Source: Clostridia bacterium (GTDB taxonomy: Bacteria > Bacillota > Clostridia > TANB77 > CAG-508). From it: a stretch of 64,000 nt of DNA. The stretch spans positions 1 to 64,000 of the forward strand of contig JAZUKI010000003.1 of assembly GCA_045643205.1 (NCBI GenBank). Direction: 5' to 3'. Positions 38,431 to 42,278 of the stretch are shown one piece after another. The notes under the pieces were generated by a model. That model was not told the origin of the DNA, made no database searches, and saw only the letters and a list, made by a program, of their open reading frames with translations. Position 1 is the stretch's first letter; each line of letters starts with the position of its first letter. The position numbers and the translations under genes were made by a program.

Positions 38431-38462
38431 AAAAGAGCAAGTATTTTAATTTACTTGCTCTT
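38431..38462 (-). terminator. intrinsic terminator after virD4
   Basis: AAGAGCAAGTA...TACTTGCTCTT. Confidence 0.75.
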
Positions 38463-38476
38463 ACTTATTTTATTTA

Positions 38477-40480
38477 TTAATCATCATAGTTAGTAGTTCC
38501 AAATAACTGATCAAACTTAGCTTCGAGTTGTTTCTCAATATCTAATTCATCATCATCAAATGGACTATCTATTGGTGAAATTGGTTGTATTGTAGATTCT
38601 TCTGTTTCAAAATTTGCACCAGTAAATGTTTCATTTGCTTCATTTGTTTCTTTCTTAGAATCTTCTTCAAGTGCAAAATCATCACTAAATAAATCATCTA
38701 ATGAAGCTATTTCTGTATCTTCATTTTCCAAATTATCATCGCTATTGTATGGATTGAATTTTCTCCATTCGCCTCTATTTCCAATATCATATTCATTATG
38801 ATTTAATTTCAATTTATCAAAATCTTTAACCATTGCTGGCTTTTTATAGTACCAGAATTTCTTTGCCATAATTGGTTTTAAACCTTTTGCAAAGATAATA
38901 CAATTGTCGTTTTCCATTCTTCTTAATTCATCTGGTGTCATTAAAGCTCTAGCCATAATTTGTTCTGATTCGCTATAACCTGTTCTTGTTCTATCGTTCT
39001 TTCTATTAGCAGATTTACTTTCGTGTGTAATTGTTTTTTCACCTAGCTCTTTAGAGAAATACTCAACTGTTGTATATGAGTTACTTCCTAAGAAAATGTG
39101 AGTATCACAGTTACCTATGATAGTTTCATATGACTTTTCATAAATTGATTTTAACTGGTCAAGGTTCTGTAGAATAACGCTGAATGAAATTCCTCTTGAA
39201 CGTGATGTTGAAATCTTTTTATCAAAGTCTGGAATTTGTCCAATGTTTGAGAACTCATCCAAAATAAAGAACATTGGTACAGGTAGCTTTCCACCTGCTT
39301 TATCTGCAAAATCATATAATTGTTGTATTAATTGTGAGAAAAATATTGTTAGCAAGAAGTCATATGCTGTATGTGTATCTGATGAAATAACGAATAATGC
39401 TGTTTTGCTATTTGCTAATTCTTCAAAATCTATTGTATTTGTTGAAGTAACATCTGCGATATCTTTAGAATCAAATTTACCTAATGCAGATTGTAATGAT
39501 GATAAGATTGAACTATATGTTTTATCTGAAGCTAATTCAACAGATTTAAAGTTTGTTCTTGCTGGGTGATCATAAGGCAATTGATTAATTAAATCAGCAA
39601 GCATGTTATTGTCACCATTGTTATTTGCAGCTCTAACTAATTCTGCACATGATGCTAAGTTACATTCTTCTGGTGGACGTTTTGCCATTAAGTAATAAAT
39701 TAATGCTTTTAATAATAACTCTGACATGTTATCCCAATATGGATCTTGTGCTCCACCTGCTTTTTCGCTCTTTTGTCCTCTTACTACTGTACTTGCTATA
39801 ATGTCTACATCAAGTTCTGAACGAATATGTGATAATGGATTGTAACTATCACTACTTTCTGGATTAACTAAGTTTAAAATCTTTACTTTGTATCCATTTT
39901 CTCTGAAATATCCTGCTGTTTTATCATATATTTCTCCTTTAGGATCTGTAAAAATATATGATCCTAAAAGTTGATGTGCATTTGGTATTGAGAATGATGC
40001 AGATTTACCAGAACCAGAACCACCGACAATAAGAACGTTTAAGTTTCCTTTTTTATCTAGTGGTAAATAGTTTTCTTCTGCTAATATTAAGCCATTGTTT
40101 TTGCTAAGTACTCTATATTGTTCTCCACCTTTGCTCCAATCTGAAGAACCATGTTCTTTTCCAGAATACTCTGTTTTCTTTCTTGATCTCCATAAACCTA
40201 AACCAACTACCATAAACCAGAATAATGTAAATATTAAAATATGTTTTACAAATGCAGCCCCACCACCTGGTAAACTAAATATATTAAAACATGAACCTAC
40301 TTCAGAAATATTTTTTATAAATGTTGGTATTGCATCCTTTTCTGAAACTAACTTATTTAAAACTTGAACCTCTGTTTGAGCTATTGGTCCCACTAAAAAA
40401 AAGCATACTAAAACCCAAAATACTATCAATGCAATAATTGGGCCTATATGCTTTTTTACATATACAGAAAAATCATCCAT
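38477..40480 (-). CDS. virD4: VirD4/TraG-family type IV coupling protein
   Basis: two N-terminal TMs, EHGSSDW, Walker A GGSGSGKS, DPKGE, YNPL, Walker B FILDEF, RSRGIS..ILQN..QL, RALMTPDEL; acidic C-tail. Confidence 0.9.
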   Translation of the reverse strand: MDDFSVYVKKHIGPIIALIVFWVLVCFFLVGPIAQTEVQVLNKLVSEKDAIPTFIKNISEVGSCFNIFSLPGGGAAFVKHILIFTLFWFMVVGLGLWRSRKKTEYSGKEHGSSDWSKGGEQYRVLSKNNGLILAEENYLPLDKKGNLNVLIVGGSGSGKSASFSIPNAHQLLGSYIFTDPKGEIYDKTAGYFRENGYKVKILNLVNPESSDSYNPLSHIRSELDVDIIASTVVRGQKSEKAGGAQDPYWDNMSELLLKALIYYLMAKRPPEECNLASCAELVRAANNNGDNNMLADLINQLPYDHPARTNFKSVELASDKTYSSILSSLQSALGKFDSKDIADVTSTNTIDFEELANSKTALFVISSDTHTAYDFLLTIFFSQLIQQLYDFADKAGGKLPVPMFFILDEFSNIGQIPDFDKKISTSRSRGISFSVILQNLDQLKSIYEKSYETIIGNCDTHIFLGSNSYTTVEYFSKELGEKTITHESKSANRKNDRTRTGYSESEQIMARALMTPDELRRMENDNCIIFAKGLKPIMAKKFWYYKKPAMVKDFDKLKLNHNEYDIGNRGEWRKFNPYNSDDNLENEDTEIASLDDLFSDDFALEEDSKKETNEANETFTGANFETEESTIQPISPIDSPFDDDELDIEKQLEAKFDQLFGTTNYDD

Positions 40481-40515
40481 AATTTTTTCCTCTTCTTTTG
40501 TTAATATTTATACTT

Positions 40516-40770
40516 CTATTTTTCTGCAACTTGATTCTTGTCTAAGTTGCCTTGTTTCATATTTATTGCGTAAGCTGTTAGTCTAGCATCTAATCCGTTT
40601 TTCAATTGTTCTTGAATCTCAACAGGAATTGTTGCCGAATTAAATGTTTCTGCCTTTCCTTCAAAAGCTGGTCCTTCTTCGACTTTTTGCGATGTTGGAT
40701 TTTCCATAACTAATTGGTTTCCATCTGTTGAAAATGTACCGCAATTAAAAATAATATCTTCGTTATTCAA
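40516..40770 (-). CDS. hypothetical small acidic protein
   Basis: 84 aa, TTG start after a perfect AAGGAGG RBS, in an operon with virD4. Confidence 0.7.
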   Translation of the reverse strand: MNNEDIIFNCGTFSTDGNQLVMENPTSQKVEEGPAFEGKAETFNSATIPVEIQEQLKNGLDARLTAYAINMKQGNLDKNQVAEK

Positions 40771-40806
40771 GAGAATTTCCTCCTTAAAAATTTAGATTCT
40801 AATCAA

Positions 40807-41319
40807 TTATCTTATTTCAAATGTGAAATAAGATTTATAAGGTTGCAATCTACATGTACCTTTAACTTCATTTGTTGCTTCATCAAGATATAAACTTGGC
40901 TTGATTTCTTCAGCTGTTTCAGGATCTATGATTGTAATTGATCTTGCAAGATTTTGAGTATACTTGAAGTCTTTAAAATCCATAGGAGTCTCTGAATATA
41001 GTGTATTAAATTGAATTGGAATTTGAGTTTTATTAAACTTAATTCTATCGTCTTTCAACTGTCCCATATTTACTGAAACTTTATCTTTTGAAAAAGATAA
41101 AATTACTAAATTCTCTCCCTCTGGTTCAGGAAAATCAACAAAGAAAGTCTTCTTTACAAAAGTTCCAGCGAACTCTTCTGAAGACACTACTCTTTCAGCT
41201 TTATACTTTAAAGTTGGTGTTTGATATTCCTTAGCTAATTTATCTATTCTATAAATTACTGTTTTTACACCTTGAGGTTGTTGAATGCTAAAGAATTTTC
41301 CAGTCATTTCTTGAGACAT
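40807..41319 (-). CDS. hypothetical beta-rich protein
   Basis: 170-aa ORF, GAGG RBS, directly below a consensus promoter. Confidence 0.75.
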   Translation of the reverse strand: MSQEMTGKFFSIQQPQGVKTVIYRIDKLAKEYQTPTLKYKAERVVSSEEFAGTFVKKTFFVDFPEPEGENLVILSFSKDKVSVNMGQLKDDRIKFNKTQIPIQFNTLYSETPMDFKDFKYTQNLARSITIIDPETAEEIKPSLYLDEATNEVKGTCRLQPYKSYFTFEIR

Positions 41320-41367
41320 TTTTTATCCTCGCTTTCCAAATCATTTTTCATAAGTAAACACATAATA

Positions 41368-41396
41368 ATTATAGTCCTTTTTCCCTTAAAAGTCAA
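41368..41396 (-). promoter_or_regulatory. sigma-A promoter of the hyp-hyp-virD4 operon
   Basis: TTGACT-17 bp-TATAAT. Confidence 0.75.
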
Positions 41397-41408
41397 TGAT
41401 ACCAAAGA

Positions 41409-42278
41409 TTATCCTTTGGTATCATTGTCTTTTAATTCTATATATAATTTTTTACTTTTTTCATCAATTTTATTTGAGAAAACTATTTGTGTTATTACTC
41501 TTAAATCTCCCCTTCTGCCGTCTCCTATTTTGTAGCCTTTACCTCTAATAATTATGTTTTGATTACTATTGGTCTTTTCAGGAATAATTATAGATATTCT
41601 TTCATTTAATATTTCTATTGTTTTTGTTGTTCCTAAAGCCGCTTCCCACACTTTAAGTGGTAACATTGTTGCTAAATTGTTTCTCTCTAAATGAAGATTT
41701 TTTGCATCCTTAATATTAATAACTACTACCAAATCTCCATTTTTTCCACCGTCTTTACCTGGTTTTCCTTGTCCTACTAATCTAATCTTTTCTCCATTTT
41801 GAATTCCTTCAGGTATTTTTATATCAATAGATTTATCTTTACCATCTATATTTTTTAACTGTAGCTTTTTATTTACTCCAAAAAACGCTTCTTCAATTGA
41901 AACATCAATCTTTGTAATAATATCTTCTCCATACTTAGGTGTAAGTTTTGGTTTTTCTTTAACTACTTTTCCTTCTTCACCTAAGAAAATTCCTATTAAA
42001 TTATCTTTCAATGATTTCTTTTCTTCTTTTGTAGTAGGTTTTGATTCTTTTCCTGAATATCTTTTCCATTGAAAATCATATTTTCTTTTTGTCCTATCAT
42101 TAGACAATACTTTATATGCTTCATTTATATCTTTAAAAACTTCTTCGTAATCTGCATTTCCAACATTCATATCAGGATGATATTTTTTTGCTTTTTCACG
42201 ATAAGCAGTTTTTATTTCATCTTCTGTTACTTTATTAGAATCAAGACCTAATATTTTGTAGTAGTCTTTAAAAACCAT
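41409..42278 (-). CDS. DnaJ-class (CbpA-like) J-domain co-chaperone
   Basis: KDYYKILG, HPD, INEAYKVLS, C-terminal KIPEG/IRLVGQG/GDL; no zinc finger. Confidence 0.88.
   Translation of the reverse strand: MVFKDYYKILGLDSNKVTEDEIKTAYREKAKKYHPDMNVGNADYEEVFKDINEAYKVLSNDRTKRKYDFQWKRYSGKESKPTTKEEKKSLKDNLIGIFLGEEGKVVKEKPKLTPKYGEDIITKIDVSIEEAFFGVNKKLQLKNIDGKDKSIDIKIPEGIQNGEKIRLVGQGKPGKDGGKNGDLVVVINIKDAKNLHLERNNLATMLPLKVWEAALGTTKTIEILNERISIIIPEKTNSNQNIIIRGKGYKIGDGRRGDLRVITQIVFSNKIDEKSKKLYIELKDNDTKG

Follow-up and report, generated by a model that had tools for sequence, protein, structure and literature searches.

What is an intact coupling ATPase of the VirD4 type doing among the housekeeping genes of a small clostridial chromosome? 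The question is raised by a stretch of 64,000 nucleotides (hereafter the window) at the start of contig C3 (JAZUKI010000003.1, positions 1 to 64,000) of a Clostridia bacterium of the order TANB77 (GenBank assembly GCA_045643205.1), whose genome of 1,008,328 bases in 10 contigs, with a GC content of 27-30%, is rated 100% complete with 1.16% contamination. According to the list of open reading frames (ORFs), three co-directional genes, here called the trio, lie on the minus strand at positions 38477..41396, namely, p170, p84, and the gene for the VirD4-type ATPase (Table 1). An earlier note on this DNA had proposed that the trio encodes the core-genome motor of a dispersed, non-conjugative type IV-like system, a proposal that is supported by the conservation of the operon, by the VirD4 tree, by VirB4-like and pilin-like genes scattered over the genome, and by the lack of any match to five relaxase Pfam families. 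Taken as a whole, we give slightly better than an even chance to the reading that the trio is a core, vertically inherited VirD4 operon in which p170 acts as an adaptor on the VirD4 tail and the motor serves a dispersed, non-conjugative type IV system.

The largest gene of the trio encodes an intact, membrane-anchored VirD4/TraG coupling ATPase that is a full member of its family. It scores 442.2 bits against the CD1115 family model NF045973 (cut-off 250), 282.6 bits against PF02534 (cut-off 20.1), and 130.5 bits against PF12696, which bears the Pfam title "TraM recognition site of TraD and TraG," and a score of 95.4 bits against PF10412 (TrwB_AAD_bind) indicates that the all-alpha domain is present. 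The sequence also matches Cag5 (PDB 8dol, E 3e-18), and two N-terminal hydrophobic segments, starting at residues 6 and 73, indicate a membrane anchor. The CD1115 VirD4 proteins of Firmicute conjugative plasmids as well as integrative and conjugative elements (ICEs) have the same features, that is, a high score in hidden Markov model (HMM) searches, the anchor, Walker motifs A and B, and the all-alpha domain, and the family is named conjugal transfer protein by NCBI. This membership favors an explanation of the locus as a recent ICE remnant, in which VirD4 and two cargo genes have survived the decay of the element, as does the VirD4 tree, where its nearest sisters are scattered coupling proteins from other Clostridia, some of them present more than once in one genome.

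The distribution of the operon speaks against such a remnant. Homologues of p170 number 2695 at E <= 0.001, the best 120 of which are 59-95% identical to it, and its close relatives come from metagenome-assembled genomes, many of them from animal gut studies. Within the order, whose genomes measure 0.9-2.1 Mb, p170 was found in 37 of 41 relatives (21/24 in the genus and 15/16 in four other families) and in 195 of the 201 genomes that are at least 90% complete, where it is almost always single-copy and spans 33 of 34 genera and every one of the five families. Outside the order it was found in 0/145 genomes of other orders of the same class, 0/399 genomes of a phylum sample, and, by tblastn, 0/72,556 plasmids. 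In all 20 loci that were fetched, representing all five families (f1 to f5), p170 lies just upstream of VirD4; tblastn with the p170 of the window detects 19 of these loci, and the twentieth p170 is evident in the ORF list and can be aligned. Since the dnaJ-like and sbcD/sbcC flanks are retained in the genus of the window and in family f5 but not in the other three families, the conserved unit is the trio itself only, with p170 and VirD4 as its conserved genes.

The phylogeny of VirD4 points in the same direction. Homologues outside the order are distributed patchily, reaching E <= 1e-30 in 21 of 78 genomes and sometimes present in several copies, and they align over the core region only, at 28-40% identity; the best 25 plasmid records listed are 31.0-36.9% identical. 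In a quick IQ-TREE reconstruction (LG+C20) of 43 coupling proteins, from which two rows shorter than 370 residues had been dropped, the 21 orthologues of the order form one clade (SH-aLRT 99) with all 22 other Clostridial proteins outside it, and families f1 to f5 are each monophyletic with supports of 99-100. Several outgroup rows are long-branched, which leaves the sister relationship unsure and the ingroup result unaffected. The tree thus follows the families of the lineage, and the trio shows neither the patchy distribution nor the nesting among ICE VirD4 proteins that the earlier note had named as contrary to its proposal.

Constraint and local features complete this picture. In one pairwise comparison with the nearest relative, the ratio of nonsynonymous to synonymous substitution rates (dN/dS) was 0.077 for p170, 0.139 for VirD4, 0.267 for p84, and 0.10 for the dnaJ-like neighbor, which makes p170 the most constrained gene of the trio by this one pair. 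No relaxase, VirB4, or integrase was detected among the scanned ORFs of at least 100 residues in the window, no tRNA was found adjoining the trio, no convincing flanking direct (att-like) repeat was found there, and the GC content across the trio (0.26-0.31) matches the remainder of the window; scans, repeats, and GC thus bear out the housekeeping surroundings and even composition described from the sequence before. The recombinases found in the genome, one tyrosine recombinase on contig C10 and two serine recombinases on C6, are all on contigs other than that of the window, with none on the window's stretch. A near-universal, single-copy, syntenic operon whose VirD4 proteins form a monophyletic order clade with each family recovered, under dN/dS of 0.08-0.14 for p170 and VirD4 and without composition shift, adjacent tRNA, or att-like repeat, is the vertically inherited core operon of one order of uncultured small-genome gut Clostridia; conservation, synteny, tree, and locus features already contradict a recent ICE remnant, which we regard as having next to no chance of being correct. 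Unlike the CD1115 proteins of mobile elements, the VirD4 of the trio is a chromosomal core gene of a single order with its own clade, shares no more than 40% identity with mobile or other Clostridial homologues, and combines a terminal motif of its own with a constant partner that is absent from the plasmids searched; and, unlike conjugative elements with CD1115 proteins, its genome yielded no relaxase of the five Pfam families searched.

This terminal motif emerged from an alignment of the last 60 residues of the 21 VirD4 orthologues, all of which end in the consensus D-[ILV]-[QE]-x-x-L-E-x-K-F-D-[EQ]-L-F-[GN] followed by 2-10 residues. The positions D, L, E, K, F, D, L, and F are invariant in 21/21, and the motif is preceded by a variable acidic or low-complexity linker; the tails otherwise vary in length and sequence. 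Scored with an HMM of the motif, 21/21 orthologues reach 29-39 bits, and the 14 homologues from outside the order that returned a score do not exceed 0.4 bits; inspection by eye of 24 non-order C termini found the motif in none. Within the genome, the strict pattern occurs in one of 1266 ORFs of at least 80 residues, VirD4 itself. One orthologue from family f4 (L036, genome G031) measures 1033 residues, with all of its extra length located in the tail before the terminal motif.

The product of p170, in turn, resembles no described family. Neither p170 nor p84 matched a family in Pfam, NCBIfam, or PADLOC. The AlphaFold2 (AF2) model of p170 (predicted local distance difference test [pLDDT] score, 83.7) is all-beta with 15 strands; Foldseek against the PDB returned nothing at E <= 0.001, a sequence profile search of the PDB gave 0 matches, and the ESM Atlas yielded no usable match. 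Residues 3-102 resemble generic Ig/filamin-like sandwiches (Z <= 6.6), and the C-terminal half is barely covered by the structure alignment. The protein has no hydrophobic segment and balances 24 K/R with 24 D/E residues. A separate search of viral contigs found no relative of protein P0191.

When the p170 profile was compared with 1.84 billion representative sequences, 307 proteins matched at E <= 0.001, and about 40 of these are proteins of 370-1050 residues that contain a whole p170-like domain internally. Among the 39 long proteins scanned, 35 carry Sel1 repeats, 19 a TIR domain, and 2 a protein kinase domain, 1 has no domain, and none has a coupling-protein domain; PADLOC matches them through their TIR or kinase parts only. 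The presence of the VirD4 tail motif upstream of the p170-like domain was noticed first by reading five of these proteins. When counted, 14 of the 40 long proteins proved to contain the strict pattern; 500 shuffles gave 0.026 on average and never more than 1. In the 13 whose domain start is known, the motif sits 65-111 residues ahead of the domain. A looser pattern within 110 residues upstream occurs in 26 of 37, a count that is uncontrolled, and many of these instances are visibly the same motif. The order of the parts is instructive: in the fusions the motif precedes the domain, whereas in the operon p170 comes first and the motif lies at the far end of VirD4, so that the pairing is not accounted for by a simple gene split. 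It can be accounted for by a helix that binds the domain, whether in cis or in trans, which is why we propose that p170 docks on the VirD4 tail. The co-occurrence of motif and domain thus lends indirect support to the idea of the earlier note that p170 is an adaptor or substrate, and the motif, which is amphipathic, may be a helix that serves as the docking site. In the AF2 model of one natural fusion protein (P0251), obtained without contact output, the motif forms a helix at residues 28-40 with a pLDDT of about 56-63; a complex prediction of p170 with the 60-residue VirD4 tail, run without controls, scored 0.01 and weighs neither for nor against docking.

One metagenome contig shows the surroundings of such a fusion. 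This contig (L122; 17.8 kb, 41% GC) encodes one exact fusion protein, which is the only motif carrier there, within an array of genes running in one direction that comprises TPR, TIR-Sel1-TPR, kinase, TIR-motif-p170-Sel1, TIR-LRR(BspA), and TIR genes. The array resembles an island of conflict or effector genes.

The middle gene of the trio behaves differently from its neighbors. Only 7 homologues of p84 were found, a separate small ORF of 51-228 residues occupies its slot in 18 of the 20 loci, and a genus-level HMM of this middle ORF gave no match across families at E < 0.01, although the middle ORFs may share a strand-turn-strand at their N termini. We take p84 for a real gene that is less strongly constrained and whose order-wide homology is unproven. 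Basic C termini resemble type IV secretion signals, and the middle ORFs of the other families end in basic K/T-rich stretches. These ends, the rapid evolution of p84 reflected in its few homologues, its dN/dS, and its lack of cross-family HMM matches, and the position of both small genes directly upstream of a coupling protein agree with an alternative in which p170, p84, or both are translocated substrates, that is, effectors or surface components, with the VirD4 tail motif as their receptor. As for p170, it is the most constrained of the trio, has neither a signal nor a membrane segment, and has its domain joined in cis to the motif in cytoplasmic multidomain proteins, which fits a docking module better than cargo. 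We therefore consider the substrate alternative improbable, though clearly less so than a recent ICE remnant. In genus g6 of family f3 (L029 and L032), p170 measures 217-221 residues with an acidic C-terminal extension of about 50 residues and is followed directly by VirD4 without a separate middle ORF; open frames of 218-229 residues recur in this genus.

If p170 is a tail adaptor, which machine would the VirD4 motor serve? The description of the trio as an orphan holds for the window but not for the genome, which encodes two VirB4-like, four pilin-like, one PrgI-like, and three coupling-protein-like proteins, including the VirD4 of the trio. Most of these genes fall into two clusters on contig C3 (Table 1). 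In cluster A, the polytopic proteins of 435, 971, and 685 residues encoded after virB4 have 7-8 hydrophobic segments each. Cluster B adjoins and lies downstream of dnaA-dnaN-recF, the origin gene block, and also includes, past two replication genes (dnaB/dnaI-like), genes for 92-, 298-, and 110-residue proteins, the last pilin-like, and for a coupling-protein-like protein of 563 residues; the third coupling-protein-like gene (806 residues) is on contig C1. Both VirB4-like proteins exceed the cut-offs of PF19044 and PF12846. At E <= 1e-10, the 668-residue VirB4 is matched in 41/41 genomes of the order; 38 of these encode a full-length orthologue of it (62-73% identity), and most also have a second paralogue, about 25-31% identical. 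The 563-residue coupling-protein-like protein was found in 25 of 31 genomes, including 0 of 5 from family f2 at E <= 1e-25. No match to the relaxase families PF03432, PF03389, PF01076, PF02486, and PF08751 was obtained in this 100%-complete genome. Of the components that the earlier note had suggested looking for in the genome, VirB4-like proteins were thus found, the five relaxase families gave no match, and TcpE and the TrbL/VirB6 families were not found.

From these parts we would assemble the following working model, which goes beyond the sequences themselves at each step. The beta-sandwich of p170 would dock on the tail motif, one copy per VirD4 subunit, and act as an adaptor or gate. The loaded motor would then serve a dispersed, relaxase-less type IV machinery of the monoderm type encoded elsewhere in the genome, made up of the two VirB4-like ATPases, VirB2/VirB3-like proteins, and polytopic membrane proteins, and this machinery would transport cargo other than the DNA of an element of its own. 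The hypervariable p84 would be a lineage-specific accessory or cargo. The docking, the link between VirD4 and the VirB4 clusters, and the nature of the cargo are all putative, and they derive from patterns of sequence and gene content.

Several findings weigh against this model. With respect to p170, one of five p170-less genomes of the order, G134, retains VirD4 beside sbcD without p170 or a middle ORF (L127, G134:C1:183484-187938), and p170 is hence dispensable in at least one genome; there the tail motif is ...LENKFKKLFG, in which K stands at both of the acidic positions that follow F, a single case. Of the other four, three also lack VirD4 and one has only a fragment, and the joint loss in three genomes is weak evidence, because one assembly gap would remove both adjacent genes. 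With respect to the motif, 26 of the 40 long proteins fail the strict pattern, and the short motif HMM, which also assigns 8.9 bits to an unrelated ORF in this genome, ranks only 4 of the 40 higher than the top score among 400 shuffles; for the long proteins, the strict-pattern count with shuffles is the better statistic. With respect to the machinery, the best NCBIfam matches of the VirB4-like proteins (CD1110 and Mbov_0397 VirB4) fall short of the equivalog cut-offs, the matches to T4SS_pilin, TrbC, and PrgI (19-24.5 bits) are all under the curated Pfam cut-offs, the TcpE and TrbL/VirB6 Pfam families are missing from the matches in the genome, and the relaxase negative covers five Pfam families, with other MOB classes (MOBC, MOBH, MOBB, and MOBM) not searched. 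Moreover, the VirB4 clusters lie 44 kb and 177 kb from the trio on the contig, and, with three coupling-protein-like paralogues in the genome, any pairing of VirD4 with a cluster is tentative. Finally, in the study of Patescibacteria discussed below, the distant coupling protein gene (t4cp) is reported as non-essential and an exapted role is not excluded (PMC12102498).

The last two points lead to an alternative in which VirD4 and p170 have been exapted to a job outside any channel, as a membrane translocase of DNA or protein or as a signaling ATPase, with p170 as its regulatory subunit. The distance of VirD4 from both VirB4 genes would be natural in that case, sbcCD adjoins VirD4 in two families, and the other p170-like domains reside in cytoplasmic TIR, kinase, and Sel1 proteins unconnected with secretion; the authors of the Patescibacteria study likewise leave room for an exapted t4cp (PMC12102498). 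Yet the same study describes coupling proteins as often encoded away from virB4 (PMC12102498), and the sbcCD neighborhood is not retained in three of five families. The order retains its VirB4 and pilin-like genes as faithfully as VirD4, and VirD4 itself keeps the membrane anchor, both Walker motifs, and the all-alpha domain. We judge exaptation to be unlikely, a little less so than translocation of the small proteins, and continue to prefer a motor that works with the dispersed type IV machinery.

The closest parallel to this preferred system is found in another phylum. Patescibacteria possess a chromosomal, relaxase-less, MPF-FATA-like type IV secretion system (T4SS) (Quinonero-Coronel et al. 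2025, PMC12102498), and their system and the genome of the trio have in common a reduced genome, the lack of a relaxase (here, of any from five Pfam families), a VirB4 related to the ATPases of monoderm conjugation, an N-terminal VirB4 fragment that is TrsD-like, several genes for VirB2-like pilins, which here are candidates, T4SS genes near dnaA-dnaN-recF-gyrB (here G000:C3:84.5-96 kb, G000 being the genome of the window), and more than one t4cp per genome, with t4cp far from virB4. The two differ in phylum, the trio belonging to the class Clostridia of the Bacillota, a class name that occurs 0 times in that paper, and no p170-like partner or tail motif is seen for the Patescibacteria system in its accessible portion. 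By analogy, the similarity suggests that the clostridial system may have functions in cell-to-cell contact.

With regard to the tail, the comparison is with coupling proteins whose C termini recruit partners, such as TraD of the F plasmid, which binds TraM, and DotL of Legionella, which binds IcmS/IcmW/LvgA/DotN. The VirD4 of the trio likewise has a C-terminal extension past the ATPase core, a short conserved element at its end, and a co-encoded small protein. Unlike in those pairs, the partner here is all-beta and of no known family, and its binding is suggested by co-occurrence only; to our knowledge, the motif is also unrelated to the elements of TraD and DotL. Another comparison is offered by XVIPCD domains, which sit on effectors and bind the all-alpha domain of VirD4. 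In Xanthomonadales T4SS effectors, these domains are reported to bind VirD4 (PMC8740702) and, like the pair proposed here, are conserved and portable, tied to VirD4 recognition, and found on diverse multidomain proteins. The portable pair differs in consisting of a helix motif and a beta domain, and its multidomain carriers come from other organisms, with 0/399 phylum genomes outside the order matching. A literature search that excluded subscription journals and closed supplements found no paper describing the operon, p170, or the motif; the accessible sections of a paper on TANB77 pilins (PMC11680825) contain no mention of a T4SS, and those of PMC12306168 contain nothing on secretion.

The signals around the trio (Table 1) confirm what had been read from the sequence before, that is, a promoter, genes for 170- and 84-residue proteins, an intact VirD4 with an acidic tail, and a terminator; all of them lie on the minus strand, which the earlier note had left unstated.

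Table 1. Features of the trio and of the type IV gene clusters elsewhere in the genome (positions in the window unless a contig is named)
Feature	Position	Strand	Evidence or content
Promoter-like site TTGACT-17-TATAAT	41368..41396 (-35 41396..41391; -10 41373..41368)	-	11/12 consensus matches
p170, 170 aa, ATG start	40807..41319	-	ORF; cytoplasmic, all-beta, no described family
p84, 84 aa, TTG start	40516..40770	-	ORF; fast-evolving, hydrophilic
VirD4-type coupling ATPase, 667 aa, CD1115 family	38477..40480	-	PF02534, NF045973, PF10412, PF12696
Walker A GGSGSGKS, VirD4 residues 153-160	40001..40024	-	Nucleotide-binding motif
Walker B ILDEF, VirD4 residues 406-410	39251..39265	-	Nucleotide-binding motif
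Acidic C-terminal tail, VirD4 residues 566-667	38480..38785	-	31 D/E versus 7 K/R in 102 residues
Terminal motif DIEKQLEAKFDQLFG, VirD4 residues 647-661	38498..38542	-	Proposed docking helix for p170
Intrinsic-terminator-like hairpin after VirD4	38433..38462	-	11 pairs, followed by TTTTAG; loop 8, tail TTTTAGTTT
Cluster A (L085)	G000:C3:217037-235251		Three pilin-like genes, PrgI-like gene, VirB4-like 668 aa, three polytopic proteins
Cluster B (L084)	G000:C3:84534-95823		TrsD-like 176 aa, VirB4-like 456 aa, 277-aa gene, between gyrB and gyrA; beyond two replication genes, 92-aa, 298-aa, pilin-like 110-aa, and coupling-protein-like 563-aa genes

The promoter-like site, a near-consensus match, lies 48 nt 5' of the p170 start and is the best scoring of 28 such sites between 38200 and 41700; because shuffled sequences give a mean of 19.2, only its quality and position count. 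An AAGGAGG ribosome-binding site, read from the sequence, is placed 8 nt 5' of the TTG start of p84, and the region holds 4 terminator-like sites against 1.0 expected. A 14-pair hairpin at positions 41394-41427 overlaps both the dnaJ-like gene at its 3' end and the -35 hexamer of the trio promoter, and may both end the upstream transcript and affect access to the promoter. Upstream, the trio is flanked by the dnaJ-like gene, an HD gene, ddl, and a Mur ligase gene, and downstream by sbcD, sbcC, prfA, and a gene for a helicase of the uvrD/pcrA type.

Three further observations concern the genome at large. Between positions 518 and 24206 of the window, four giant minus-strand ORFs of 1980, 1560, 2578, and 1622 residues take up 37% of its length; two have matches to SdrD_B, DUF11, or adhesive domains, two have no Pfam family, and they are probably surface adhesins, a big investment for a 1.0-Mb genome. 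On contig C6, two adjacent large serine recombinases (L129 and L130; G000:C6:98280-100071, frames of 526 and 460 residues) near the contig end are the one sign of a mobile or rearranging element that was detected, and neither is linked to the trio. The stop codons of ORFs of at least 200 residues are TAA in 504, TAG in 91, and TGA in 15 cases, which makes TGA rare.

Coupling proteins determine the cargo of a type IV machine. Very few pairs of tail and partner are understood, and we know of none in monoderm bacteria; in the present case, a motor of this kind is maintained as a core gene by an entire order of gut bacteria, abundant but uncultured, together with a new partner and a sharply defined 15-residue motif. 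It is tempting to go one step further and to read the KFDELFG-type helix and the p170 beta domain as a new portable peptide-domain docking pair. In this broader reading, which we put forward tentatively and hold to be less probable than the operon reading alone, the pair would arm a domesticated coupling ATPase in a single order of gut Clostridia that are host-dependent and have small genomes; the ATPase would serve a type IV machine located near the origin and lacking a relaxase, either convergent with the episymbiosis T4SS of Patescibacteria or of common ancestry with it; and in other bacteria the pair would act in cis within Sel1-repeat conflict proteins, whose TIR or kinase effector domains it would restrain or polymerize head to tail. 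That TIR, Sel1, and kinase proteins reuse the motif-domain pair ties secretion biology to bacterial conflict systems. As for the organisms themselves, genomes of 1-2 Mb spend two VirB4 proteins, three coupling-protein-like ATPases, and several pilin-like genes on a relaxase-less system, an outlay that, by analogy with what has been proposed for Patescibacteria, points to a contact-dependent lifestyle.

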